A DNA stretch of 64,000 nt from Escherichia coli (lineage in GTDB: Bacteria; Pseudomonadota; Gammaproteobacteria; Enterobacterales; Enterobacteriaceae). Shown one piece after another: positions 9,998 through 57,200 of the stretch (positions are counted from its first letter, which is position 1; the number at the start of each line of letters is the position of its first letter). The notes under the pieces were generated by a model. It worked only from the letters and a program-made list of their open reading frames with translations, had not been told where the DNA came from and ran no database searches. Location: NCBI RefSeq assembly GCF_003991155.1, contig NZ_CP031295.1. One strand, written 5' to 3'. Both the position numbers and the translations under genes were made by a program.

Positions 9998-10434
9998 CAG
10001 CGTAACTCCCGCGTCCTGTGTATCACGTGAGTGACAACACCAAAAATACAGATGTTTTCCGGATACAGTGTGCGGAATTCCGGGCTGTCTGAAACCGGCT
10101 CCAGTGCCGGGCGTGGGCGCAACAGCAGTCGTTTGACGGTGAACTCACCGTCGATCTCAGCGATAACGATGTCCCCGTGTTGTGGTTTCTCGGCCCTGTC
10201 CACTACCAGCAGATCACCATTCTGCACGCCAGCCTGGTTCATCGATTCACCGCTGGCGCGCAGAAAGAAGGTGGCTGCAGGTCTGCTGATGCAATAGCTG
10301 TTCAGATCCAGTTCCTGCTCAGCATAATCAGTGGCAGGCGAAGGAAAACCGGCCTGGCAACGATCGGCAAACAACGGTCGCACGTAACTGTCATCGCCTG
10401 AAGGGTCAGCCGGACGGTGATAAACGGTACTCAT
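9997..10434 (-). CDS. impA: UmuD/ImpA-like S24 peptidase
   Basis: LexA-type autocleaving domain with SGESM serine motif; translationally coupled to impB. Confidence 0.85.
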   Translation of the reverse strand: MSTVYHRPADPSGDDSYVRPLFADRCQAGFPSPATDYAEQELDLNSYCISRPAATFFLRASGESMNQAGVQNGDLLVVDRAEKPQHGDIVIAEIDGEFTVKRLLLRPRPALEPVSDSPEFRTLYPENICIFGVVTHVIHRTRELR

Positions 10435-10679
10435 GCTGCAGGCAGCCAGCTGTCGTCCTGCCAGATTTCTTCCAGCAGAGACAGGATACGTTCTTTATCC
10501 TTGTCGTTGCGGGCTCCTGTGACAGATACAGACGGGGCGCTGCCCTGGTCAATACGCAGCCAGATTTCCGGGTAGTGTGGTTTCAGACGTTGTTCGATTT
10601 CATTCTGTAGCGCCTGAAGTGTGCCTGATTTGAGGTTTTTTGTGCTCTGGCGGTCGAAAAGAATTTCAATGCGGATCAT
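10431..10679 (-). CDS. impC: ImpC-like small protein
   Basis: First gene of the three-gene operon; start placed at MIRIEILFDRQ (ATG 10677-10679). Confidence 0.7.
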   Translation of the reverse strand: MIRIEILFDRQSTKNLKSGTLQALQNEIEQRLKPHYPEIWLRIDQGSAPSVSVTGARNDKDKERILSLLEEIWQDDSWLPAA

Positions 10680-10702
10680 GTTCTCATCTCCCTTTTTTAT
10701 TG

Positions 10703-10718
10703 CTGTATGTATATACAG
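10703..10718. promoter_or_regulatory. LexA box (SOS operator) upstream of impC
   Basis: CTGTATGTATATACAG fits the CTGT-N8-ACAG consensus, about 25 bp upstream of the impC start. Confidence 0.75.
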
Positions 10719-11072
10719 TATTCTAATAACTGAATCCACACACAGTCAAATGTCATTATTGTGACTAAAAAACGCTCAATTCTCTGAGAGTGTGGCTGTA
10801 TGCCTGCTGTGGACTGCTGTGTCCAGCTTATCCACAGCATTTTGCGCACGGTTCTGTGAATAAAATACCTGGTTACCCAGGCCGTGCCGGCACGTTAACC
10901 GGGCTGCATCCGATGCAAGTGTGTCGCTGTCGCCGGCCTCCTCACCCGGTCACGTTTCGTCGTTCCTCCTCCACGCGCTGCGGCTTCGGGGCCGCACCTG
11001 CATTCGTATGCGGTCGCCCGGTTACAGGTGCGGCACGGCCTGATGGAGGCCGCATGTGAGAGGAGAATTCCC

Positions 11073-11999
11073 ATGCCAAACTGGTGCTCGAATCGTATGC
11101 ATTTTTCTGGTGAACCGGCACAGATTGCTGAGATTAAACGACTGGCCAGCGGTGCCGTCACACCGCTTTATCGCCGCGCCACAAATGAAGGTATTCAGCT
11201 GTTTCTGGCCGGAAGTGCCGGACTTCTGCAGACCACTGAAGATGTGCAGTTTGAACCGTGCCCCGGACTGACGGATGCCGGACGTGGTGTTGTATCGCCG
11301 GAGAATATCGCGTTCACCCGCTGGCTGACACACCTGCAGAACGGTGTACTGCTGGATGAGCAAAACTGCCTGATGCTGCATGAACTCTGGCTGCAGAGTG
11401 GTACTGGCCAGCGTCGCTGGGAAGGATTACCGGATGAGGTCAGGGAAACCATCACCGTGCATTTCACCGCAAAAAGAGGTGACTGGTGTGGCTTCTGGAG
11501 TAACGAGGATGTATCGGTGTGGTGGAACCGTCTGTGTGACAATGTACTGCCGGAAAAAACCATGCCGTTTGACCTGCTGACGGTTCTGCCCACCCGCCTG
11601 GATGTTGAAGTGAATGGCTTTAACGGTGGTGTTCTGAACGGTGTTCCTTCTGCGTATCACTGGTATACGGAACAGTATGGCGTGAAGTGGCCTGTGGGGT
11701 ATGAGGTGAATATCAGCCGTCAGGGAGAAAACTTCATTCAAGTGGATTTCGACACGCCGTGGTGTCAGCCGGAAAGCAACGTTGTTGCAGAATTAAGCCG
11801 CCGTTTCGGCTGCACGCTGGAGCACTGGTACGCCGAACAGGGCTGCAATTTCTGTGGCTGGCAGCGATATGAGCGTGGAGAGCTTGTTGATGTGCTGTGG
11901 GGGGAACTGGAATGGTCTTCCCCGACAGATGATGATGAGCTGCCGGAAGTCACCGCGCCGGAGTGGATAGTCGACAAGGTGGCGCATTACGGGGGATGA
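11073..11999 (+). CDS. conserved leading-region protein, Cys/Trp-rich, unknown function (308 aa)
   Basis: ORF with GAGAGGAG RBS; many W and C residues (PNWCSNRMHF, WCGFWSNEDVSVWWNRLC); no enzymatic motif recognised. Confidence 0.65.
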   Translation: MPNWCSNRMHFSGEPAQIAEIKRLASGAVTPLYRRATNEGIQLFLAGSAGLLQTTEDVQFEPCPGLTDAGRGVVSPENIAFTRWLTHLQNGVLLDEQNCLMLHELWLQSGTGQRRWEGLPDEVRETITVHFTAKRGDWCGFWSNEDVSVWWNRLCDNVLPEKTMPFDLLTVLPTRLDVEVNGFNGGVLNGVPSAYHWYTEQYGVKWPVGYEVNISRQGENFIQVDFDTPWCQPESNVVAELSRRFGCTLEHWYAEQGCNFCGWQRYERGELVDVLWGELEWSSPTDDDELPEVTAPEWIVDKVAHYGG

Positions 12000-12012
12000 A
12001 GTATGACGGAGA

Positions 12013-12038
12013 CGGGCGGGCAACCGCCCGTTTCTTTT
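12013..12038 (+). terminator. rho-independent terminator
   Basis: GGGCGGGCAACCGCCCG hairpin followed by TTTCTTTT. Confidence 0.6.
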
Positions 12039-12383
12039 CCGACAAAGGATGTCGCCGTGCTCCTCTTTTTACTGCGCCGGCTGACGCGGCGCGGCAGGAA
12101 CGCTGCCTGTGGTCAGTGTCCCGCGTCCGGCGGGCACGGGACGGGCGCTTTTACTGCTCCCGGCTGGCACCGGTGACAGTGTACGCCAGCCTGTCGCCCT
12201 TTTCTGATGAACGCCCTTCAAGCCGCTTTCGCGGCATATTCTCGCCGTCAAAAAGACGACGGCTGCGATATTCCACGGTCGGCCTGACCCGTTACCGGAC
12301 GCGGTGAACAGCCCACAGGCAGCGGGGAACGGGCACCACAGGGGTGCCCTCCCGGTGCCCTCTGTAAGAGAAGGAGCGTTGTT

Positions 12384-13067
12384 ATGTCCCGTTTTGTCCT
12401 TGGTAACTGCATCGATGTTATGACGCGTATCCCTGATAACGCCATTGATTTCATATTAACTGACCCGCCATATCTCGTCGGTTTTCGTGACCGTTCCGGG
12501 CGCACCATCGCCGGCGATAAAACCGATGAATGGCTGCAACCGGCCTGTAATGAAATGTACCGCGTACTCAAAAAAGACGCGCTGATGGTGAGCTTCTACG
12601 GCTGGAACCGCGTCGATCGCTTTATGGCCGCCTGGAAAAATGCGGGATTCAGCGTTGTTGGTCACCTGGTCTTCACCAAAAACTACACATCGAAGGCCGC
12701 ATATGTGGGCTATCGCCACGAATGCGCCTACATCCTGGCAAAAGGCCGTCCACGTCTGCCACAAAACCCGCTGCCGGACGTGCTGGGCTGGAAATATTCT
12801 GGCAATCGTCATCACCCGACGGAAAAGCCCGTTACCAGCCTGCAACCGCTGATTGAGAGCTTCACACACCCGAACGCAATTGTGCTGGACCCGTTTGCAG
12901 GCAGCGGCTCAACCTGCGTCGCCGCCCTCCAGTCCGGACGCCGGTATATCGGTATCGAGCTGCTTGAGCAGTATCACCGTGCCGGGCAGCAACGCCTTGC
13001 CGCCGTGCAACGGGCCATGCAGCAGGGGGCCGCGAATGATGACTGGTTTATGCCGGAGGCTGCGTAA
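12384..13067 (+). CDS. orphan DNA methyltransferase, beta-class (motif IV before motif I)
   Basis: DPPY motif (ILTDPPYLVGF) near the N-terminus and SAM-binding FAGSGST near the C-terminus; no adjacent restriction gene. Confidence 0.85.
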   Translation: MSRFVLGNCIDVMTRIPDNAIDFILTDPPYLVGFRDRSGRTIAGDKTDEWLQPACNEMYRVLKKDALMVSFYGWNRVDRFMAAWKNAGFSVVGHLVFTKNYTSKAAYVGYRHECAYILAKGRPRLPQNPLPDVLGWKYSGNRHHPTEKPVTSLQPLIESFTHPNAIVLDPFAGSGSTCVAALQSGRRYIGIELLEQYHRAGQQRLAAVQRAMQQGAANDDWFMPEAA

Positions 13068-13289
13068 ATGAACTATGCCGGACACGAAAAACTTCGCGCC
13101 GACGTGGCGGAGGTGGCCAACACCATGTGTGACCTTCGGGCCAGGCTGAACGATATGGAGCATCGCTGTCGCTTTGATTCCGATGTGCTTGTTGAACGCC
13201 TGACACGCCAGACGCTGTATCGCGCCAATCGCCTGTTTATGGAGGCGTATACCGAAATTCTGGAACTGGATTCCTGCTTCAAAGATTGA
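13068..13289 (+). CDS. hypothetical protein (73 aa)
   Basis: ATG overlaps the methyltransferase stop (translational coupling); no motif recognised. Confidence 0.5.
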   Translation: MNYAGHEKLRADVAEVANTMCDLRARLNDMEHRCRFDSDVLVERLTRQTLYRANRLFMEAYTEILELDSCFKD

Positions 13290-13302
13290 GAAGGAGACGA
13301 GA

Positions 13303-13737
13303 ATGTACGGAACATGCGAAACGCTATGCCGGGAGCTGGCAGCAAAGTATCCGGGAGACGCGCCGCTGATGCTGGTTATCTGGTCCCCGGAAGAGATTCA
13401 GGCACTGGCTGACGGTATGGAAATTTCTCTGACCGATCATGAAATCAGGACCGTCCTGGCGCGCATGGAGGACATCCCGGAAGACCAGCGGACTGAATCC
13501 GGTATTTCTTCCGCCGCGGTGATGGAGATTATCAGCAACGTGAGCGAAAACCGCCAGGTGACCGTCCCTGCTGAACTGCTGGCGTCCCTGATTCAGACCG
13601 CTGAACAGGCACTGTGGAAACGTGAGTGGGCCGCCCGTGATAACGGCCTCGCCGTCCCGGAATGCGTTACCCGCCGTCAGGCGGTGGTTAATCAGGCCCG
13701 CACCCTGCTGAAAAACAACACACACGAAAACAACTGA
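13303..13737 (+). CDS. conserved leading-region protein (144 aa), paralog of 15453..15875
   Basis: Shares N-terminal MY-x-T, SLTD-x-E and RQVTVPA motifs with the 140-aa protein at 15453; GGAG RBS. Confidence 0.65.
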
Positions 13738-13787
13738 TGTTATCGCCGCCTGCCCTGCGGGCGGCGATACAGGGAGAACGCTTAATC

Positions 13788-14564
13788 ATGAACGAAAACA
13801 GCACGCTGAACGCACTGATTTGTCGTCACGCCCGTAACCTGCTGCTGGCGCAGGGCTGGCCGGAAGAGACGGATGTTGACCAGCGAAATCCGAACTATCC
13901 GGGCTGGATCAGCATTTACGTGCGGCTGGATGCGCCCCGGCTGGCGACGTTACTTATCAACCGTCACGGCGGCGTACTGCCGCCGCTCCTGGCCTCCGCC
14001 ATTCAGAGACTGACCGGAACCGGGGCGGAACTGGTACTGTCCGGCAGTCAGTGGCAGTCGCTGCCGGTACTTCCGGCAGACGGAACGCAGGTGTCTTTCC
14101 CGTATGCCGGAGAATGGCTGACCGAAGACGAAATCAGGGCTGTTCTTGATGCGGTGCACGATGCGGTACGAAGCATCTGTTACCAGGTGGCAGAAGATGC
14201 GCGGCGTATCCGTGCGGCGCTGACCACCACCGGTCAGACGTTGCTGACCCGCCAGACGCGCCGCTTTCGCCTGGTCGTGAAGGAAAGCGATCACCCCTGC
14301 TGGCTCGATGAAGATGACGAAAACCTGCCCGTGGTGCTCGATGCCATCGTGAACCGGGGAGCACGTTTTTCGTCGGTGGAAATGTATCTGGTCAGTGAGT
14401 GTATTGAGCATATCCTGTCCAGTGGGCTGGCCTGCGATGTGCTGCGTATACCGGATGAACCGCCCCGCCGCTGGTTTGACCGTGGTGTTCTGCGGGAGGT
14501 GGTCCGGGAAGCCCGGACCGAAATCCGCAGCATGGCGGATGCCCTGGCAAAAATCCGGAAATGA
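13788..14564 (+). CDS. conserved leading-region protein (258 aa), unknown function
   Basis: Long ORF; start placed at MNENSTLN (ATG 13788) just downstream of a hairpin; no motif recognised. Confidence 0.6.
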
Positions 14565-14571
14565 TGACGAT

Positions 14572-14596
14572 GGCGGGGAAAATCCCCGCCTTTTTC
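14572..14596 (+). terminator. rho-independent terminator
   Basis: GGCGGGGAAAATCCCCGCC hairpin followed by TTTTT. Confidence 0.7.
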
Positions 14597-14980
14597 CTGC
14601 CGGTCCCCGGACAGAGCACAAAGGAAGTCGCCGCCGGCTCCGCTTTACCCGGCCATGCAGGGCATGGCCTTGTGGTTTTTCAGTTATGTGGCCTCAGCGT
14701 CGTGTGCGGGCTGTGCCGTGCCTCCATCTTAGCCGGGCTGGCGTTGATGCAAGGGTACGCTTCGCCGCTGCGGTCACCCGGTCCCTCCTTCCCGTCTGCC
14801 GTGATTTTCCGGTCGTTCACCCGCTCAGATTTCGCGGTCTCACCCTGCAACTCCCGTCAGCCGTGTGCGTCAGGCTGCGGCTTCCCTTGCGCCCCTGCAT
14901 CCCCGCCTGTTCGCCCGGCTTTTATGGAGGCACGGCACCGCCCGGTGTCGCGGAATATGTGAACAACGGAGGAAAACATC

Positions 14981-16224: not shown

Positions 16225-16870
16225 TGTTCCTGATGTTGTTGTTCCTTTATCTGCTGCTCTGATTCTGACTACTGCAGTGTTGTTCTGTCTGCCGGGCGCA
16301 CCTTCGGCTCCCGGCTGCCTGGCGGCATCCGGTCGTCAGGCCCGACTCCGACAGGCAGCTGCTGGCGCACCCGCCAGTCTCCGCCGAACCCGCTGGCGCG
16401 GTTTCGGGCTGTCGCTACGGTCCGATGCGTGAAAACCCCGGGCTTGCAGCGACCGTTCCGGTCGCGCCACCCTTGTCGCGCCGTGGCCTGCGCTCCCGGC
16501 ATCCCGGCAAAAGGCCGCCGGGATGTAAGGGGCAACGCCGTTTCGCGCACGCGCTCTCCGTCGTTGCGGCGGGTCCCTGCTCATTGCCTGCCGGTGCCAC
16601 ACACCCGTATGAGTCCCTGTCGCCGGGGGCTGATACAGCCACAACCTGCCGCACTGACTGTCCAGGGTAAATGAACAGCCCACAAAATTTTTTACCCAAA
16701 ACCCGGTAAAAAATTTTGCGTTCTGCCCAGGACAGGTGCGTCAGGCCGTGGCAGTGATGCCCCTTGCGGCGAAGGTTCTCAAACGGGTGAAGTTCATACC
16801 ACAGGGAATACAGCAGCAGGTTCCCGCGAAACGTCAAAACCGCGGCTCCCGAAACTCAACGGGTGATGTT
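16225..16870 (+). repeat. GC-rich structured repeat, copy 1 (Frpo/ssi-like single-strand promoter candidate)
   Basis: About 650 bp near-identical to 19510-20185 and 24965-25608; internal palindrome AAAATTTTTTACC...GGTAAAAAATTTT at 16684-16718. Confidence 0.7.
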
Positions 16871-17097
16871 CTTTAAAAATCAGGATTTATTTCAGACTCC
16901 GGCAATACGCATTTATGTGTTCTGTCAGTCATCCGGCTGGCAGGTAATGAGAACGCAGGAACAGAAGGAGGAAAACACCGGAGAACGTCAGACGCAGATA
17001 TGAAAAAAGCAGGTCAGGGACCTGCTTAATCCACACCGCAGAGACTGCACGAACAGTCTTTACGGTTTCATTAATTAACGTCATAAGAGGCTAAATT

Positions 17098-17328
17098 ATG
17101 ACAGTAAGTATTGTTTCACCTTCCGCAGCGGCTGTAAAGCCCCGCCGTCATCCCCGTTTCAGACGCGAAGACATCCCCGCGCCGGAAATTGACCCCGTGC
17201 TGAAAGCCTTCGGGCGACACATTGCCCGGAGTTTTCACCGGGGGCGTGGTGTACACATCCCCGCCATGAAAAACACGGCCTTCGGGCAGGTGCTCCGCAC
17301 ACTCGAACTGAAACGCGCTTTTAACTGA
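17098..17328 (+). CDS. small basic hypothetical protein (76 aa)
   Basis: First ORF downstream of repeat copy 1; AGAGG RBS. Confidence 0.5.
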   Translation: MTVSIVSPSAAAVKPRRHPRFRREDIPAPEIDPVLKAFGRHIARSFHRGRGVHIPAMKNTAFGQVLRTLELKRAFN

Positions 17329-18788: not shown

Positions 18789-19352
18789 ATGCACAGTCAG
18801 TTAAGAGAACGTATCCGGCTGATGCGCGCAAGGCTGGATAACGCCGCGCCGGTTGCTGAAATCCGGGCTGAATCTCAGCTTTTTGTGACTCCTGCCCCGG
18901 TCTGTGATCGCCTGGTGATGCTGGCGGAGATCAGCAACCGTGATCACATTCTGGAACCCTCTGCCGGCACCGGGGCCATACTGCGGGCGATTCGGGATAC
19001 CGCGCCGGGGGCCATGTGTGATGCGGTGGAAATCAACAGCGGGCTGGTCCGGTATCTGCGGGAAAATTTTAACGGTGTCAGGGTTCAGTGTGGCGACTTC
19101 ATGGAATGGCAGCCGGTGCAGTATTACAGCCGGGTTATCATGAATCCGCCGTTCAGCCACGGGCAGGATATCCGGCATATCCTGCGGGCCTTTTCCCTGT
19201 TGCGTCCGGGGGGCGTGCTGGTCGCCGTCTGTCTCAACGGACCACGCCAGCAGGAGAAGCTGTTACCGTTTTCTGACGTCCGCGAGGAGCTGCCGCGCGG
19301 CACGTTTGCTTATACCGATGTCCCGACGATGATTATTCGTCTGCGTGCCTGA
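18789..19352 (+). CDS. small orphan DNA methyltransferase, gamma-like order (motif I before motif IV)
   Basis: SAM-binding LEPSAGTGAIL followed by VIMNPPFSHGQD (NPPF); only 187 aa. Confidence 0.75.
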   Translation: MHSQLRERIRLMRARLDNAAPVAEIRAESQLFVTPAPVCDRLVMLAEISNRDHILEPSAGTGAILRAIRDTAPGAMCDAVEINSGLVRYLRENFNGVRVQCGDFMEWQPVQYYSRVIMNPPFSHGQDIRHILRAFSLLRPGGVLVAVCLNGPRQQEKLLPFSDVREELPRGTFAYTDVPTMIIRLRA

Positions 19353-19509: not shown

Positions 19510-20185
19510 GTTACTGATGTTGTTGTTCCTGCTACTGTTCTTCTTTTTCCTGCTGCTCTGATTCTGACTACTGCAGTGTTGTCCTGTCTGCCGGGCGCAC
19601 CTTCGGCTCCCGGCTGCCTGGCGGCATCCGGTCGTCAGGCCCGACTCCGACAGGCAGCTGCTGGCGCACCTGCCAGTCTCCGCCGAACCCGCTGGCGCGG
19701 TTTCGGGCTGTCGCTACGGTCCGATGCGTGAAAACCCCTGGCTTGCAGCGACCGTTCCGGTCGCGCCGCCTCTGTCGCGCCGTGGCCTGCGCTCCTGGCA
19801 TCCCGGCAAAAGACCGCCGGGATGTAAGGGGCAACGCCGTTTCGCAAACCGCGCTTCACGTCGTTGCGGCGGGTCCCTGCCCGTTGTTCTGTCCGGTGCC
19901 ATTCACCTGTTTAAGCCCCTGTCGCCGGGGGCAAAGACAGCCACAACCGTCTCCGCCAGTCCAGGGGTGAAATGTACATCCCGCAAAACTTTTTGCCCAA
20001 AAGCAGGCAAAAACTTTTGCGGGATGTACATTTCACCCCCGGACAGTCGTTTCCGTCCGTGGCAGTGATGCCCCTTGCGGCGAAGGTTCTCAAAAAGGTG
20101 ATGGTGAATACCGGAGGGAACAAAAGGCAGGTCCCCGCAAAACGTCAAAACCGCGGCTCCCGAAACTCAAAAGATGATGGGGGCT
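19510..20185 (+). repeat. GC-rich structured repeat, copy 2 (Frpo/ssi-like), upstream of ssb
   Basis: Near-identical to copies 1 and 3; long hairpin 19962-20041 (GGGGTGAAATGTACATCCCGCAAAACTTTTTGCC ... GGCAAAAACTTTTGCGGGATGTACATTTCACCCC) with a single central mismatch. Confidence 0.7.
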
Positions 20186-20212
20186 GAAAACATCAACAGA
20201 AGGAGGCACATC

Positions 20213-24708: not shown

Positions 24709-24964
24709 CAACCTGGAGGCGGGCGCAGGCCCGCCTTTTCAGGACTGATGCTGGTCTGACTACTGAAGCGCCTTTATAAAGGGGCTGCTGGTTCGCCGGT
24801 AGCCCCTTTCTCCTTGCTGATGTTGTACGGGCATGAACAACCTGACTTCAGGAAGGTCGTTTCCCTTCAGGAACGGGGATGAACGCGCGCCTGCGGCGCC
24901 CGTTCTTTTCCCCCGCCTTCTCTGGTTATGGCCTGTCAGAAATCACATCACCTTCCCTGTGATT

Positions 24965-25608
24965 ATTCTCTTTTTCTTCCTGCTCTGATTCTGACTACTG
25001 CAGTGTTGTCCTGTCTGCCGGGCGTACCTTCGGCTCCCGGCTGCCTGGCGGCATCCGGTCGTCAGGCCCGACTCCGACAGGCAGCTGCTGGCGCACCTGC
25101 CAGTCTCCGCCGAACCCGCTGGCGCGGTTTCGGGCTGTCGCTACGGTCCGATGCGTGAAAACCCCTGGCTTGCAGCGACCGTTCCGGTCGCGCCGCCTCT
25201 GTCGCGCCGTGACCTGCGCTCCCGGCATCCCGGCAAAAGGCGCCGGGATGTAAGGCGCAACGCCGTTTCGCAAACCGCGCTTCACGTCGTTGCGGCGGGT
25301 CCCTGCCCGTTGTTGTGTCCGGTGCCATTCACCAGTTTAAGCCCCTGTCGCCGGGGGCATAGACAGCCACAACCGTCTCCGCCAGTCCAGGGGTGAAATG
25401 CACATCCCGCAAAACTTTTTGCCCAGAAGCAGGCAAAAACTTTTGCGGTCTGCCCCCGGACAGTCGTTTCCGGCCGTGGCAGTGATGCCCCATGCGGCGA
25501 AGGTTCTCAAACAGGTGATGGTGAATACCGGAGGGAACAAAAGGCAGGTCCCCGCAAAACGTCAAAACCGCGGCTCCCGAAACTCAACAGATGATGGGGG
25601 CTGAAAAC
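24965..25608 (+). repeat. GC-rich structured repeat, copy 3 (Frpo/ssi-like)
   Basis: Near-identical to copy 2; palindrome GCAAAACTTTTTGCC...GGCAAAAACTTTTGC at 25407-25448. Confidence 0.7.
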
Positions 25609-26033: not shown

Positions 26034-26855
26034 ATGCGATTAGCTTCCCGTTTTGGTCGGTATAATTCCATCCGCCGTGAACGTCCTTTAACGGATGATG
26101 AATTAATGCAGTTCGTGCCTTCGGTATTTTCCGGTGATAAACATGAGTCCCGGAGTGAACGTTATACGTATATTCCAACAATCAATATCATCAATAAGTT
26201 ACGTGATGAAGGTTTCCAGCCATTCTTTGCCTGTCAGAGTCGGATTCGTGATTTGGGACGTCGCGAATACAGTAAACATATGTTACGTCTTCGCAGGGAA
26301 GGGCATATTAACGGACAGGAAGTTCCTGAAATTATCCTGCTTAATTCACATGATGGTTCATCCAGTTATCAGATGATCCCCGGAATTTTTCGTTTTGTCT
26401 GCACAAATGGCCTGGTGTGCGGAAATAATTTTGGCGAAATCCGCGTTCCACATAAAGGTGATATTGTCGGGCAGGTTATCGAGGGAGCGTATGAAGTGCT
26501 CGGTGTCTTTGATAAGGTCACTGATAATATGGAGGCGATGAAAGAAATTCATCTTAACAGTGACGAGCAACATTTATTTGGCAGAGCTGCACTGATGGTC
26601 AGGTATGAAGATGAAAATAAAACGCCAGTGACACCTGAACAGATAATTACTCCCCGTCGTCGGGAAGACAAACAGAACGATCTCTGGACAACCTGGCAGC
26701 GGGTTCAGGAGAATATGATAAAAGGTGGATTATCGGGGCGAAGTGCCTCCGGGAAAAATACCAGGACAAGAGCCATTACAGGTATTGATGGTGATATAAG
26801 AATCAACAAGGCGTTATGGGTGATTGCCGAACAGTTCAGAAAGTGGAAGTCATGA
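26034..26855 (+). CDS. conserved leading-region protein (273 aa), unknown function
   Basis: ORF with AAGGAG RBS; start placed at MRLASRFGRY; family often annotated only as a DUF in F-like plasmids (recollection, unverified). Confidence 0.7.
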   Translation: MRLASRFGRYNSIRRERPLTDDELMQFVPSVFSGDKHESRSERYTYIPTINIINKLRDEGFQPFFACQSRIRDLGRREYSKHMLRLRREGHINGQEVPEIILLNSHDGSSSYQMIPGIFRFVCTNGLVCGNNFGEIRVPHKGDIVGQVIEGAYEVLGVFDKVTDNMEAMKEIHLNSDEQHLFGRAALMVRYEDENKTPVTPEQIITPRRREDKQNDLWTTWQRVQENMIKGGLSGRSASGKNTRTRAITGIDGDIRINKALWVIAEQFRKWKS

Positions 26856-26866
26856 TAATATAAGTA

Positions 26867-26894
26867 AAGCCCCGAAAAAATTTTCGGGGCTTTA
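26867..26894. terminator. bidirectional hairpin terminator
   Basis: AAAGCCCCGAAAAAATTTTCGGGGCTTT perfect palindrome between convergent genes. Confidence 0.65.
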
Positions 26895-27151
26895 CTTATA
26901 TTATCATTTTTCGGCATTGCTGTGTCGTCTGATATACCTCAATTTCATCAACCGGATTTCCGGTTGTCTGTAAATATTGTGCCCGCGAAAAATGGTCTGG
27001 CAGGAGGCTGCACAGTTACCGGGTATATATAAGATGGGTTCCCGCTTCGCGGGGCTTCGGCCAGTCAGTATTGTCACTCATATGATATTTTTGTGTGTGG
27101 CCTTCCATGCCGCTTTTGCGGCATAACCGGTATCTGACAATGTCTGTAAGA

Positions 27152-27661: not shown

Positions 27662-28074
27662 TTTTCCACCTCTGGTGACTTTATCCGTAAATAATTTAAC
27701 CCACTCCACAAAAAGGCTCAACAGGTTGGTGGTTCTCACCACCAAAAGCACCACACCCCACGCAAAAACAAGTTTTTGCTGATTTTTCTTTATAAATAGA
27801 GAGTTATGACAAATTAGTTCTTCTTGCTCTCTTTGTGATATTTAAAAAAGCGGTGTTGGCGCAGCTACAACACCGCGCCGACACCGCTTTTTAGGGGTGG
27901 TACTGACTATTTTCATAAAAAACATCATCTTATATTAGGGGTGCTGCTAGCGGCGCGGTGTGTTTTTTTACAGGACGCCCCTGGGGGCGCTGCTAGCGGT
28001 GCGTCCCTGTTTGCATTATGAATTTTAGTGTTTCGAAATTAACTTTATTTTATGTTCAAAAAAGGTAATCTCTA
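27662..28074 (-). other. oriT: origin of transfer (oriT), F-type, nic site near 27752/27753 on the reverse strand
   Basis: Reverse complement of 27740-27775 reads TTTGCGTGGGGTGTGGTGCTTTTGGTG (F nic region as recalled); inverted repeats and AT-rich tracts between gene X and traM. Confidence 0.85.
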
Positions 28075-51366: not shown

Positions 51367-53507
51367 ATGAGTTTTAACGCAAAGGATATGACCCAGGGCG
51401 GTCAGATTGCGTCCATGCGTATCCGCATGTTCAGTCAGATCGCCAATATCATACTTTACTGCCTGTTTATTTTTTTCTGGATCCTAGTTGGTCTGGTTTT
51501 ATGGGTAAAAATAAGCTGGCAGACGTTTGTGAATGGCTGCATTTACTGGTGGTGCACCACGCTGGAAGGCATGCGGGATTTAATCAGGTCCCAGCCGGTC
51601 TATGAGATCCAGTATTACGGCAAAACCTTCCGGATGAACGCGGCTCAGGTACTGCATGATAAATATATGATCTGGTGCGGAGAGCAGCTATGGTCCGCAT
51701 TCGTTCTGGCCACAGTTGTGGCACTGGTTATTGCCTGATTACCTTCTTTGTTGTCTCACGGATTCTGGGGCGTCAGGGTAAACAACAGAGCGAAAATGAA
51801 GTCACAGGTGGTCGTCAGCTGACAGACAATCCGAAAGACGTTGCCCGGATGCTGAAAAAGACGGCAAGGACTCCGATATACGGATTGGCGACCTGCCGAT
51901 TATCCGGGATTCCGAAATCAGAACTTCTGTCTGCACGGCACGGTCGGGGCCGGTAAGTCGGAAGTTATCCGTCGTCTGGCCAACTACGCCCGTCAGCGTG
52001 GAGATATGGTGGTGATTTATGACCGTTCAGGGAATTTGTTAAAAGTTACTATGATCCCTCCATCGATAAAATCCTGAATCCGCTGGATGCCCGCTGTGCC
52101 GCACGGGATTTGTGGAAGAGTGCCTGACACAGCCAGATTTTGATAATACCGCAAATACTCTGATCCCGATGGGGACAAAAGAGGACCCGTTCTGGCAGGG
52201 TTCAGGACGTACCATTTTTGCGGAAGCGGCATACCTGATGCGTAATGACCCCAACCGCAGCTACAGCAAACTGGTGGACACACTGCTTTCCATCAAAATT
52301 GAAAAGCTGCGTACCTTCCTGCGTAATTCACCGGCGGCCAACCTGGTGGAAGAGAAAATCGAGAAAACGGCCATATCCATCCGTGCTGTGCTGACCAACT
52401 ACGTGAAAGCCATCCGTTACCTGCAGGGGATTGAGCATAACGGTGAGTCTTTACCATCCGTGACTGGATGCGTGGTGTCCGGAAGATCAGAAAAACGGCT
52501 GGCTGTTTATCTCGTCGAATGCCGACACCCATGCCTCCCTGAAGCCGGTGATCTCCATGTGGCTGTCCATTGCCATTCGTGGTCTGCTGGCAATGGGAGA
52601 AAACCGTAACCGTCGTGTGTGGTTTTCTGTGATGAGCTACCCACGTTACACAAACTGCCGGACTGGTGGAGATCCTGCCGGAAGCCCGTAAGTTCGGTGG
52701 CTGTTATGTGTTTGGTATCCAGTCTATGCCCAGCTGGAAGATATCTACGGTGAAAGCGGCTGCCACGCTGTTTGACGTCATGAACACCCGTGCCTTTTTC
52801 GTTCTCCCAGCCATAAGATTGCAGAGTTCGCTGCCGGTGAGATTGGTGAGAAAGAGCACCTGAAAGCCAGCGAGCAGTATTCCTACGGTGCTGATCCGGT
52901 ACGTGACGGGGTATCGACCGGTAAGGATATGGAGCGTCAGACGCTGGTCAGTTATTCCGACATTCAGTCTCTGCCGGATCTGACCTGTTATGTCACCCTG
53001 CCCGGACCGTATCCGGCAGTAAAACTCTCCCTGAAATATCAGACACGACCGAAGGTCGCTCCGGAGTTTATTCCGCGTGACATCAACCCGGAAATGGAGA
53101 ACCGTCTGAGTGCCGTACTTGCCGCAAGGGAAGCAGAAGGTCGTCAGATGGCCAGCCTCTTCGAACCGGATGTCCCGGAGGTTGTTTCCGGAGAAGACGT
53201 GACTCAGGCTGAACAGCCGCAACAGCCGGTGTCTCCTGCCATCAACGATAAGAAGTCAGATGCAGGTGTGAATGTTCCGGCAGGGGGGATCGAGCAGGAG
53301 CTGAAAATGAAACCGGAAGAAGAGATGGAACAGCAACTGCCACCCGGGATCAGTGAATCCGGTGAAGTGGTGGATATGGCCGTTTATGAGGCATGGCAAC
53401 GGGAGCAGAATCCGGATATCCAGCAGAAGATGCAGCGTCGTGAAGAGGTGAACATCAATGTGCACCGGGAGCGCGGGGAGGATGTTGAGCCGGGAGATGA
53501 TTTCTGA
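51367..53507 (+). pseudogene. traD: traD (coupling protein) fragmented into at least five reading-frame segments
   Basis: TraD-like peptide runs in ORFs 51367-51738, 51675-51956, 52112-52609, 52666-52863 and 52929-53507, each in a different frame; Walker [12 protein letters not shown] is in yet another frame near 51935. Confidence 0.8.
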
Positions 53508-53515
53508 TGAACAGG

Positions 53516-53914
53516 TCAGCTCCAGTCTTCAATTCTCAGACCGTCCACACGTTCAAATTCCCGGGTGTTATTAGTCACAATAATCAGTCCCCGACTGCGG
53601 GCATGACCTGCGATCATTTGATCAAATGGCCCGACAGGGCGTCCCTGACGGGCAAGTTCTGCTCTTATCTGGCCGCTGTGTGTGGCTGCGGCAGCGTCGT
53701 AATCCAGAACATCAATGCGGGAAACAAATCCCTCGATCACAGCGAGATTACGTTCAGGCATCTGGCTTTTTTCTGCACCATATATCAGCTCCATCAGGGT
53801 GACCGAACTGATACACATTCTCCCCTGGTTCAGGTTAAAACGCTCCCTGACGCTGGCGGGTTTGTTCTTTATCGTGAAAATGCAGATGTTGGTATCGAGC
53901 ATAAACTTCAGCAT
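53516..53914 (-). CDS. vapC: VapC PIN-domain toxin
   Basis: MLKFMLDTNICIF PIN N-terminus; 132 aa. Confidence 0.85.
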   Translation of the reverse strand: MLKFMLDTNICIFTIKNKPASVRERFNLNQGRMCISSVTLMELIYGAEKSQMPERNLAVIEGFVSRIDVLDYDAAAATHSGQIRAELARQGRPVGPFDQMIAGHARSRGLIIVTNNTREFERVDGLRIEDWS

Positions 53915-54141
53915 CAGAATGACTCCCTTTCCTGCATGCCGGGCTGTTCCCTGTTATCCATAAAATCGGCGCTGACGTTGTGTCCGTCGAACCATTCGTC
54001 CCATGTCTCTCCGGCTGGCGTAATGATTCTGGTTCGTCCGACAGCAATCACTTCAACGCGTTTTACGTTTTCCGGCAATGCAACCGCTTTTGGCAGTCTG
54101 ACCGCCTGGCTGCGGTTGCTGAAAAATACGGTGGTTTCCAT
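53914..54141 (-). CDS. vapB: VapB antitoxin
   Basis: 75-aa ORF immediately upstream of, and coupled to, vapC. Confidence 0.8.
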   Translation of the reverse strand: METTVFFSNRSQAVRLPKAVALPENVKRVEVIAVGRTRIITPAGETWDEWFDGHNVSADFMDNREQPGMQERESF

Positions 54142-54222
54142 TATTTGCCTCCTTATGTGGATATGTCTTGTGTATATCCATTGTGGGATTGATACCGGGA
54201 TATGTCAAAGGGATATACGTTT

Positions 54223-57200
54223 ATGATGAGTATCGCGCAGGTCAGATCGGCCGGAAGTGCCGGTAACTATTATACCGACAAGGATAATTACTATGTGCTG
54301 GGCAGCATGGGAGAACGCTGGGCCGGCAGGGGGGCTGAACAGCTGGGGCTGCAGGGCAGCGTCGATAAGGATGTTTTTACCCGTCTTCTGGAGGGGAAGC
54401 TGCCGGACGGAGCGGATTTAAGCCGCATGCAGGATGGCAGTAATAAGCATCGTCCCGGCTACGACCTGACCTTCTCCGCCCCCAAAAGTGTCTCCGTGAT
54501 GGCCATGTTAGGCGGTGATAAACGTCTTATTGATGCACATAACCAGGCCGTGGATTTTGCTGTCCGTCAGGTGGAGGCGCTGGCTTCCACACGGGTTATG
54601 ACGGACGGACAGTCAGAAACGGTGCTGACCGGTAATCTGGTGATGGCACTGTTTAACCACGACACCAGTCGCGATCAGGAACCACAGTTACACACACATG
54701 CGGTAGTGGCCAATGTCACGCAGCATAACGGCGAGTGGAAGACATTGAGCAGTGACAAAGTGGGGAAAACGGGGTTCATTGAGAATGTGTACGCTAATCA
54801 GATTGCCTTCGGCAGGCTCTACCGGGAAAAACTGAAAGAGCAGGTTGAGGCGCTAGGCTATGAAACGGAAGTGGTTGGTAAGCACGGTATGTGGGAGATG
54901 CCGGGCGTACCGGTGGAGGCCTTCTCCGGACGCTCACAGGCTATCCGGGAGGCCGTCGGGGAAGACGCCTCGCTGAAATCCCGGGATGTGGCGGCACTGG
55001 ATACGCGAAAATCCAAACAGCACGTCGATCCTGAAGTCAGAATGGCTGAATGGATGCAGACGCTGAAGGAAACCGGGTTCGACATCCGGGCGTATCGTGA
55101 CGCGGCGGACCAACGGGCGGAGACCCGCACGCAGACGCCCGGACCCGCTTCACAGGACGGGCCGGATGTGCAGCAGGCGGTGACACAGGCCATTGCCGGA
55201 TTAAGTGAACGCAAAGTGCAGTTTACGTACACGGACGTGCTGGCCAGAACGGTCGGCATACTGCCGCCGGAAAATGGTGTGATTGAACGGGCACGCGCCG
55301 GTATCGATGAGGCCATCAGCCGTGAGCAGCTTATCCCCCTCGATCGTGAGAAGGGGCTGTTCACGTCCGGGATTCATGTGCTCGATGAGCTGTCAGTCCG
55401 GGCACTCAGTCGTGACATCATGAAACAGAACCGGGTGACCGTACATCCGGAGAAAAGTGTCCCCCGGACGGCCGGTTACAGCGATGCGGTCAGTGTTCTG
55501 GCACAGGATCGCCCGTCGCTGGCTATTGTGTCCGGGCAGGGCGGTGCAGCCGGGCAGCGTGAGCGGGTGGCGGAGCTGGTCATGATGGCCCGGGAGCAGG
55601 GGCGGGAGGTGCAGATTATCGCCGCTGACCGTCGCTCGCAGATGAACCTGAAGCAGGATGAACGGCTGTCCGGTGAGCTGATAACCGGACGTCGTCAGCT
55701 GCAGGAGGGCATGGCCTTCACGCCGGGCAATACTGTTATCGTTGACCAGGGCGAAAAACTCTCCCTGAAAGAGACGTTAACCCTGCTGGACGGTGCCGCA
55801 CGTCATAACGTACAGGTCCTGATAACCGACAGCGGGCAGCGAACCGGTACAGGCAGTGCACTGATGGCCATGAAAGATGCCGGGGTGAACACATATCGCT
55901 GGCAGGGGGGAGAACAGCGGCCGGCCACCATCATCAGTGAACCGGACCGTAATGTCCGCTATGCCCGGCTGGCAGGAGATTTTGCTGCCAGCGTGAAAGC
56001 CGGAGAAGAGAGCGTGGCACAGGTCAGCGGGGTACGGGAACAGGCCATACTGACACAGGCCATTCGCAGTGAGCTGAAAACACAGGGCGTGCTCGGACGC
56101 CCGGAGGTAACCATGACCGCCCTGTCGCCGGTCTGGCTGGACAGCCGGAGCCGTTATCTGCGGGATATGTACCGTCCGGGGATGGTGATGGAGCAGTGGA
56201 ACCCGGAGACACGCAGTCATGACCGCTATGTTATCGACCGGGTGACGGCGCAGAGTAACAGCCTGACCCTGCGGGATGCGCAGGATGAAACGCAGGTGGT
56301 GCGTATTTCCTCCCTGGACAGCAGCTGGTCGCTGTTCCGGCCGGAAAAAATGCCGGTGGCAGACGGCGAGCGACTGAGGGTGACAGGGAAAATTCCCGGA
56401 CTCCGCGTCTCCGGCGGTGACCGCCTGCAGGTGGCATCCGTCAGTGAAGATGCGATGACGGTTGTTGTGCCGGGGCGGGCTGAACCGGCCTCCCTGCCTG
56501 TGAGCGATTCACCATTCATGGCACTGAAGCTGGAGAACGGCTGGGTGGAAACGCCCGGGCATTCCGTCAGCGACAGTGCGAAGGTTTTTGCCTCCGTCAC
56601 ACAGATGGCAATGGACAACGCCACCCTGAACGGTCTGGCCCGCAGCGGTCGTGATGTCCGGCTGTATTCCTCACTGGATGAAACCCGTACTGCGGAAAAA
56701 CTTGCCCGCCATCCCTCCTTTACGGTGGTTTCTGAGCAGATAAAGGCGCGTGCCGGTGAGACATTGCTGGAAACCGCTATCAGTCTGCAGAAAACCGGGC
56801 TTCACACGCCGGCACAGCAGGCTATTCATCTGGCGCTTCCTGTGGTGGAAAGTAAAAACCTGGCCTTCAGCATGGTGGACCTGCTGACAGAGGCGAAGTC
56901 GTTTGCTGCAGAAGGAACCAGTTTTACTGAACTGGGAGGGGAAATCAATGCGCAGATAAAACGCGGTGATTTACTGTATGTGGATGTGGCAAAAGGCTAT
57001 GGCACAGGCCTGCTGGTTTCCCGTGCGTCGTATGAGGCAGAAAAGAGCATTCTTCGCCATATTCTCGAAGGTAAGGAGGCGGTCACGCCACTGATGGAGA
57101 GAGTACCTGGCGAACTCATGGAGAAACTGACATCAGGACAGCGTGCCGCTACCCGCATGATACTGGAAACGTCCGACCGTTTCACGGTGGTGCAGGGCTA

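Follow-up and report, generated by a model that had tools for sequence, protein, structure and literature searches.

A methylase module and a probable DUF1281 module at the oriT-distal end of an IncF plasmid leading region

Positions 11,073–13,289 of a 64,000-nucleotide stretch of DNA from Escherichia coli (contig NZ_CP031295.1), the whole of which is referred to below as the window, carry genes for a 308-aa protein of the DUF1281 family, for a DNA methyltransferase orthologous to M.EcoGIX and for the 73-aa protein YubE. With good confidence, these genes and their flanks are read here as two modules lying at the end of a plasmid leading region distal to the transfer origin (oriT), each made of a stem-loop on the transferred strand, one or several genes and an intrinsic terminator, an arrangement that follows from orthology for the methylase and that we infer for DUF1281. 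The methylase, its promoter and YubE have already been described and DUF1281 is a catalogued family of unknown function; what is new here is modest, namely a hairpin attached to DUF1281 that is class 2-like in this plasmid and of class 3 in other lineages.

In the methylase module, the class 3 (ssp3) hairpin at 12040–12383 would fold only as long as the plasmid in the recipient is still single-stranded, and would recruit the host RNA polymerase for expression of the methyltransferase, YubE, a DUF1380 protein and a YchA-like protein. The M.EcoGIX orthologue would put N6-methyladenine (m6A) on single-stranded DNA (ssDNA) at SAY, pre-empting many restriction enzymes before the complementary strand is made, and expression would end once the hairpin becomes duplex. 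In the DUF1281 module, the hairpin at 10878–11042, kin to class 2 (ssp2), would serve the DUF1281 gene up to a terminator at 12008–12039, and the protein would be made early from the entering strand. There, DUF1281 may have a role in establishment or anti-defence, exerted through a conserved site formed by its MPNWCxN N-terminus and its C-terminal ferredoxin-like domain (GTKW, AWxPP and YxExGxxFxG motifs).

Location within the leading region

An earlier note on this DNA, made from the letters and open reading frames (ORFs) alone and called below the original prediction, had placed these genes in a plasmid leading region, and the position of oriT agrees with this label. Using as query what we take to be the 17-nt nic sequence of the F oriT, an exact match to GTGGGGTGTGGTGCTTT is found at 27745–27761 on the minus strand, where 0.02 would be expected by chance; the minus strand is thus the transferred strand, and the leading region occupies the interval between 27.7 kb and about 10.8 kb. 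The genes at 11073–13289 and the rest of the methylase operon are all directed towards oriT. Regarding secondary structure, 17 of the 18 GC-corrected structure outliers on the minus strand lie within 10–29 kb, and in the folding comparison 15 of 16 hairpins are more stable on the transferred strand than on the opposite one. The hairpins are under selection: they are more conserved than the synonymous sites of the flanking genes and contain compensatory changes. A simple scan of 10400–14000 found no sigma-70-like promoter on the plus strand, and an Rfam scan of 8–24 kb returned nothing at 11073–13289, its only matches being putative class 1 Frpo repeats. Many plasmids of E. coli, Salmonella and Shigella are 100% identical in the region 11073–13289, which occurs at ≥90% identity in no fewer than 5000 PLSDB records, and the identical record is a conjugative IncFIA/FIB/FIC plasmid.

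The M.EcoGIX orthologue and its class 3 promoter

The gene at 12384–13067 (plus strand) encodes a 227-aa beta-class N6-adenine DNA methyltransferase, in which DPPY at residues 27–30 precedes FAGSGST at residues ~171–177, the motif order of the beta class. Over its full length, it matches PF01555 with an E-value of 1.9e-40 (139.6 bits for a cut-off of 26.7) and the NCBIfam model PRK13699 with an E-value of 3e-151 (501 bits for a cut-off of 244), while its relatives in the Protein Data Bank (PDB) are the CcrM, RsrI, DpnA, MboIIA and PvuII methylases. The ratio of non-synonymous to synonymous changes (pN/pS) is 0.06–0.14. None of the neighbouring genes, encoding DUF1281, YubE, DUF1380 and YchA-like proteins, has a nuclease domain or a PADLOC match and, since no nuclease gene is adjacent, the methylase is an orphan. 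An orphan beta-class methyltransferase had been proposed at the outset, and the motif order, the PF01555 match and the nuclease-free neighbourhood all bear this out. The enzyme also differs in kind, as had been suggested, from the methyltransferase encoded at 18789–19352, which is of the class I S-adenosylmethionine (SAM) type and shows weak PF05175/PF13649 matches; two methyltransferase families were already listed among leading-region genes (Samuel et al. 2024).

Of the 227 residues, 216 (95%) are identical to those of O3K_25847 from pESBL-EA11 (54782–55465; E. coli O104:H4), which is M.EcoGIX, and the surrounding gene order is the same in both plasmids; identity and locus together place the two in one orthologous group. 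Table 2 of Yamaichi et al. names the pESBL gene M.EcoGIX and gives YfbB of R64 and YfeA of F as its homologues. M.EcoGIX methylates promiscuously, producing m6A at SAY on single strands only; produced from the entering strand, it shields the plasmid in recipients by up to ~1000-fold against EcoGIII or EcoRI (PMC7736820, PMC4288162). Judging from the sequence, the methyltransferase of the window is this already-studied enzyme and its predicted biology confirms published work. The pESBL system shares with it the length of 227 aa, the DPPY...FxGSG order, the upstream hairpin and the neighbours, namely DUF1281 on the 5′ side and YubE, DUF1380 and YchA on the 3′ side; it differs by 11 substitutions, known here from sequence, and by the plasmid, which is IncF here and IncI1 for pESBL. 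M.BceJIII has been named beside M.EcoGIX, YfbB and YfeA among the closest known methylases.

More distant is the DpnA type, represented by DpnA/M1.HpyAVI (PDB 5HEK), which is likewise a small beta-class enzyme without a large target-recognition domain but aligns with the window methylase through its C-terminal SAM-binding part only (E ~1e-11). In pneumococci, the single strands that come in by transformation are the substrate of DpnA. It belongs to a restriction-modification cassette and to transformation entry, whereas the window methylase belongs to conjugation; by analogy, both may be likened as small beta-class methylases protecting DNA that enters the cell single-stranded.

Upstream of the methylase gene, the 384-nt gap that follows DUF1281 folds on the minus strand as a long imperfect stem-loop (free energy change, dG, -110.4 kcal/mol; z -6.5), the main stem of which has its arms at 12101–12130 and 12295–12324. 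By homology to the pESBL and F elements, the transferred (minus) strand of 12040–12383 is the class 3 (ssp3) ssDNA promoter hairpin of the M.EcoGIX operon: the gap is 96–97% identical to those elements, against 90–93% for the flanking methylase gene, and lies on the same strand, placed and oriented alike 5′ of the methylase operon, with no material difference. In a seven-sequence class 3 alignment, 14 of 85 pairs show compensatory changes. For pESBL, Wen et al. 2025 (PMC12672017) document this element as the class 3 ssDNA promoter from which M.EcoGIX is transcribed, reporting zygotic induction and a start site mapped by rapid amplification of cDNA 5′ ends (5′RACE), and the F study (bioRxiv 10.64898/2026.01.09.698686) designates the F homologue ssp3. 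From the sequence of the class 3 hairpin, -35 and -10 hexamers could not be convincingly assigned. A 25-nt motif of the ~650-nt repeats described below recurs within it, at 12142–12166. The original prediction saw in this interval a terminator separating the 308-aa gene from the methylase; the terminator is real, but the gap is the published class 3 promoter as well.

The same interval holds an ORF of 103 aa on the plus strand (11996–12307), annotated by RefSeq/PGAP as a hypothetical protein (WP_011254640 and relatives), which spans the terminator and lies within the class 3 hairpin. Its pN/pS is ~1.3 at 96–98% nucleotide identity (0.5 against L005, a comparison with 7 differing sites only), and it gains a stop in one plasmid, while the real genes of this region have pN/pS values of 0.06–0.44. 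On account of this ratio and of the stop, the ORF is taken as non-coding, and the 103-aa entry is probably a widespread spurious annotation within ssp3.

The DUF1281 gene and the hairpin preceding it

The gene at 11073–11999 (plus strand) encodes a 308-aa protein with DUF1281 (PF06924) and DUF1281_C (PF18406) domains, both above cut-offs, and with the Api92 fold; its names are Hp8 for pESBL (O3K_25842, 53471–54397), YfaB for R64-type records and, for F, YubB or YfdA. As initially noticed, it is rich in Trp (16 residues, 5.2%) and Cys (9 residues, 2.9%), every motif then quoted being present; its isoelectric point (pI) is 4.6 and its net charge about -22. The protein begins with MPNWCSNRMHF. 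A GAGGAG Shine-Dalgarno sequence precedes the start at 11073 and MPNWC is kept in all homologues, which is why this start is preferred over the one at 11097 that RefSeq gives in the identical record. Many RefSeq records begin at this second ATG, giving 300 aa and losing the invariant MPNWCSNR N-terminus, and the 308-aa start is used in pESBL and R64-type records. In classical F (NC_002483, locus L014, 6811–7781), the gene is frameshifted into ORFs of 183 and 145 aa, which probably explains why Pfam holds separate DUF1281 and DUF1281_C models and where the name YubB comes from.

The gene is monocistronic in the window. An intrinsic terminator (12008–12039, plus strand) begins 9 nt past the TGA at 11997–11999 and has the same sequence in pESBL; it consists of an RNA hairpin at 12008–12035 with a 12-bp stem (dG -26.6 kcal/mol; z -5.7) followed by UUUUCC. 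A terminator had been predicted at this place, and the hairpin and its U tract confirm it; a simple scanner had missed it because the stem absorbs part of the T run. Plasmids of Salmonella (L008, 6933–8039), Klebsiella (L010, 6933–7919) and Pantoea (L012, 6921–7859) have small extra ORFs between DUF1281 and the methylase hairpin, of 156 aa, 77+111 aa or 79+112 aa, without a Pfam match in any of them; these ORFs appear to be co-transcribed with DUF1281.

Directly 5′ of DUF1281, within the 330 nt that separate the divergent impC promoter from the DUF1281 start, lies an imperfect stem-loop on the transferred (minus) strand at 10878–11042, an inverted repeat with arms at 10878–10904 and 11016–11042. 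As ssDNA, the minus strand folds with a dG of -71.4 kcal/mol (z -4.2), and its 3′ arm carries TTGCAT (10918–10913), a 15-nt spacer and TAACGT (10897–10892). The region is 98.6–100% identical to F and pESBL, against 94–95% for the adjacent coding sequence. It aligns with the class 2 hairpins of klcA and ardA, in which the basal stem, the inner stem and the block CTTGCAT-N15-TAAnnT-GGCACGGC recur. The consensus of a nine-sequence class 2-type alignment has 54 pairs, with 93.5% of cells paired against 31–37% in slid controls and with compensatory changes in 23 pairs, values that none of 500 shuffles reaches.

Besides, a class 2 profile (nhmmer) built exclusively from the hairpins of antirestriction genes, with the 10878–11042 element excluded, matches the minus strand at 10881–10950 (E 0.0035) and 10974–11044 (E 0.081); the two matches are collinear and are the sole non-self ones in the window. 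The same profile matches the copy upstream of DUF1281 in Pantoea with an E-value of 5.8e-6. The TTG and TAnnnT elements are kept in all class 2-type copies except L008, which has TGG for TTG. By sequence and architecture, 10878–11042 belongs to class 2 (ssp2), and it is counted as a divergent relative because the sequence similarity is weak. With the class 2/ssp2 elements of klcA(ardB) and ardA, of which the hairpin of the klcA/ardB antirestriction operon at 14707–14944 (minus strand, inverted repeat; PMC12672017, bioRxiv 10.64898/2026.01.09.698686) serves as reference, it has in common the GCCGTGCC...GGCACGGC basal stem, the CCGGGC/GCCCGG inner stem, CTTGCAT (-35)-N15-TAAnnT (-10) on the 3′ arm, the internal loop at -10 and the spacing to the start codon. 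It differs from them in being ~80 nt shorter, the apical part being missing, in its weaker -10 (TAACGT vs. TAAGAT) and in its marginal profile similarity, and the published sets of promoters for pESBL and for F do not include it.

A hairpin precedes DUF1281 wherever the upstream flank is kept, in all examined plasmids but L004. It is class 2-like in the window, pESBL, F and Pantoea, whereas nhmmer assigns it to the class 3 type in plasmids of Salmonella (E 1.6e-40) and Klebsiella (E 3.4e-47), the DUF1281 proteins of which are 47–62% identical to that of the window; these copies directly 5′ of DUF1281 extend class 3 beyond its published occurrence. In Pantoea, class 2-type hairpins stand before both DUF1281 and the methylase. 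In L004 (NZ_CP027767), an AT-rich sequence at 340–626, beside parM, replaces the hairpin up to 29 nt before the DUF1281 start.

The DUF1281 family

DUF1281 is under purifying selection, with pN/pS values of 0.24–0.44 across lineages, and full-length homologues of 45–62% identity are found at the corresponding place in plasmids of Salmonella, Klebsiella and Pantoea. Lack of conservation in related plasmids had been named beforehand as an outcome that would speak against the Cys/Trp-rich ORF; conservation turned out to be strong. Samuel et al. 2024 (Supplementary Table 1) list DUF1281 as leading-region-enriched family 27 (1949 vs. 22 members), on the T strand and uncharacterised. A global search at E ≤ 1e-3 gives 3099 cluster representatives for the superfamily, which reaches phages and giant viruses. 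Relatives are encoded at 61 IMG/VR loci (L015–L075), and at 57 of these the ORF extracted at the match is a protein of 116–346 aa opening with MPNWC(S/A)N. The phage relatives carry the DUF1281_C domain with the GTKW, AWxPP and YxExGxxFxG motifs, and the genes neighbouring the 61 homologues (GP88, DUF4241, unknowns) are uninformative.

In a 39-sequence alignment, M1, P2, N3, W4, C5, N7, G203, K205, W206, W230 and E255 are invariant and G257 and G262 nearly so, the invariance of MPNWC being partly by construction since the N-terminal motif served for retrieval. Two candidate sites were abandoned. A Cys5-His251-Asp227 triad, the residues of which are shared with Api92, was dropped since His251 and Asp227 vary in phage members, and an N-terminal-proline (tautomerase-like) site was set aside in view of the Glu that Api92 has for Asn3 and of the bias of the phage retrieval by the MPNWC pattern.

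Api92 from Yersinia pseudotuberculosis (PDB 2IJR) is the solved homologue of DUF1281 and the sole match of a PDB profile search with the DUF1281 alignment. This comparison yields a fold and not a mechanism, as no member has a known function. PADLOC and NCBIfam gave no match for DUF1281, YubE or DUF1380, and no functional study of DUF1281, Api92, YubB or YfaB was found in the literature. The term ferredoxin-like in the Pfam name designates a fold, not an iron-sulfur protein. In a paper on polinton-like viruses, DUF1281_C is interpreted as a ferredoxin electron carrier (PMC12220804), which is probably a misinterpretation.

Weighing the alternatives

For DUF1281, a separate hairpin-gene-terminator module expressed like its neighbours is the simplest reading, and several observations weigh against it. 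In the available part of the early-conjugation transcriptome of pESBL (PMC12672017), six induced operons and six ssDNA promoters are described, none for Hp8, and some leading-region genes are not induced; likewise, the available part of the F study reports four ssDNA-promoter operons and none for DUF1281 (bioRxiv 10.64898/2026.01.09.698686). This absence from the published ssDNA-promoter operons argues against strong promoter activity of the hairpin. DUF1281 is dispensable in laboratory matings: it is non-essential by transposon sequencing (Tn-seq) in pESBL (Yamaichi et al.), it is frameshifted in classical F, and the IncFIA plasmid NZ_CP027767 lacks the hairpin with DUF1281 intact. The element at 10878–11042 itself resembles class 2 weakly (E 0.0035 and 0.081), its -10-like hexamer (TAACGT) is poor and its spacer measures 15 nt, and the strand asymmetry of its folding is marginal (-0.8 kcal/mol). 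Finally, no structural or profile similarity suggests an activity for DUF1281 or YubE.

The same hairpin could instead be a structural element of the entering strand, either an ssp2-type roadblock that would hinder complementary-strand synthesis at the leading region's outer border or a priming (ssi) site, with DUF1281 expressed weakly or from a duplex promoter, an account that we regard as rather unlikely while giving it real weight. It would fit the limitation to six induced operons in the pESBL data (PMC12672017) and several results of the F study (bioRxiv 10.64898/2026.01.09.698686): without any need for transcription, the F ssp2 stem-loop stalls complementary-strand synthesis, conversion comes later at all leading-region loci than would be expected from how far they lie from oriT, the locus beside yfdA (the F DUF1281) included, and deletion of ssp2 leaves the loci upstream of it unaffected. 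It would also fit the ssp2 stem architecture of 10878–11042 and its placement where oriT-ward synthesis would first enter the leading region. On the other hand, the invariant TTG and TAnnnT of class 2 are kept, with a spacing to the start codon equal to that at klcA, and DUF1281 carries elsewhere a class 3 hairpin, the class to which the F work attributes promoter activity and no roadblock activity. The promoter and roadblock roles are compatible with each other. Going further, 10878–11042 might be an unreported additional ssp2-type ssDNA promoter, the fifth in F and the seventh in pESBL, and maybe also the roadblock that replication meets first at the leading region's outer edge, driving a new early anti-defence or establishment effector, that is an enzyme or a ligand binder using Cys5, Lys205 and Glu255; this bolder proposal is advanced tentatively and is more doubtful than the modular organisation as such.

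Regarding the 308-aa protein, the original prediction took the Cys/Trp motifs as signs of a metal- or nucleic-acid-binding fold, which, joined to a methyltransferase acting as a conventional site-specific orphan, makes an improbable alternative. Beyond the Trp and Cys richness, it can draw on the plasmid clade, in which C5 and C261 are invariant and C155 and C258 at least 90% conserved, C258 and C261 forming a CxxC, and on W4, W206 and W230, which are invariant superfamily-wide and the aromatic rings of which could stack on bases. Yet C5 alone among the nine Cys is invariant across plasmid, Yersinia and phage members; C155, C258 and C261 are conserved in the plasmid clade only, the CxxC is missing from Api92, and C139, C231 and C247 of the quoted motifs vary even among close plasmids. 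No set of three to four Cys/His ligands is conserved across the family, H251 being variable in phage members. The idea of metal binding is therefore weak and the predicted fold is left unsupported; a structural metal site limited to the plasmid clade of DUF1281 is possible. An acidic protein is also atypical for a DNA binder, and the orthologue of the methylase was shown experimentally to be promiscuous and single-strand-specific, not site-specific (PMC7736820). Taken as a whole, the pattern of conservation argues for a DUF1281 site made of the N-terminal strand and the C-terminal domain, not for a Cys-based metal cluster. Very improbable is the view that DUF1281 is a selfish or decaying passenger, conserved by hitch-hiking with the leading-region backbone: dispensability in Tn-seq, the frameshift in F and the many truncated or fused database entries would suit it, but the pN/pS values across lineages, the full-length homologues holding this position in plasmids of Salmonella, Klebsiella and Pantoea, the number of cluster representatives and the motifs invariant from plasmids to phages all speak against it.

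YubE, the rest of the operon and other elements of the leading region

YubE (13068–13289, plus strand, 73 aa; PF27407) corresponds to Hp9 of pESBL and YfcA of R64. Its ATG abuts the TAA of the methylase gene in a TAAATG junction (gcgTAAATGaac), with GGAGG 9 nt upstream, and its translation is coupled to that of the methylase; the tight coupling initially proposed thus stands, but not the overlap of start and stop codons. In the Salmonella and Klebsiella homologues, the methylase and YubE genes do overlap, by 1 nt. PF27407 is assigned to YubE homologues that always come next after the methylase in Salmonella, Klebsiella and Pantoea plasmids, and the protein matches phrog_4830 with an E-value of 1e-36. 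Its pN/pS of 0.23–0.27 indicates a real gene. The AlphaFold2 (AF2) model is a two-helix hairpin (helices 7–33 and 41–72), for which Foldseek found no match in the PDB at E ≤ 0.001. In published constructs, the methylase is active without YubE; from the conserved coupling, YubE would be a small helical protein serving the methylase operon as a partner or accessory. The allele is 97% identical to that of F and 79–81% identical to those of pESBL, R64-type plasmids and Shigella, with a synonymous divergence of ~0.5, while the neighbouring genes differ by 5–10%, a mosaic pattern that suggests allele exchange by recombination.

The methylase operon continues, with short gaps between genes, through a DUF1380 gene (13303–13737, plus strand; PF07128 E 5.5e-53) and a YchA-like gene with a likely start at 13788 and an end at 14564 (plus strand; phrog_8919 matches from residue 18), and is closed by an intrinsic terminator at 14572–14598 (plus strand), GGCGGGGAAAATCCCCGCC followed by TTTTTCC.

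On the other side, to the left of the DUF1281 hairpin, a small conserved stem-loop at ~10797–10832 and a terminator-like hairpin on the minus strand at 10882–10867, followed by ATTTTATT, lie between this hairpin and the promoter of impC (DinI-like) at 10749–10720; the elements at 10795–10882 may act as an insulator. Closer to oriT, three copies of a ~650-nt repeat (16225–16880, 19524–20191 and 24951–25608) are 90–97% identical over their best-conserved blocks, other blocks falling to as little as 75%; where they lie and how the repeats are built lead us to take them for class 1 Frpo/ssi elements. The Rfam labels they receive are AS-pc01 (17004–17103, minus strand) and sub-threshold miRNA-like matches (19926–20076, minus strand). 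A strong structure outlier (z -4.35) lies at 26852–26907, at ~850 nt from nic; it is an inverted repeat of 27 nt, perfect and closed by a loop of 2 nt.

Concluding remarks

For annotation, this analysis corrects two recurrent errors, the spurious ORF inside ssp3 and the truncated DUF1281 starts. The methylase allele occurs in thousands of sequenced IncF and IncI resistance plasmids. DUF1281 is among the most abundant uncharacterised leading-region families, with phage relatives and with its own hairpin of the ssDNA-promoter type in several plasmid lineages. Should this hairpin prove active, plasmid functions induced zygotically would be more numerous than those listed so far, and DUF1281 would become a foremost candidate for a new activity in establishment or anti-defence.

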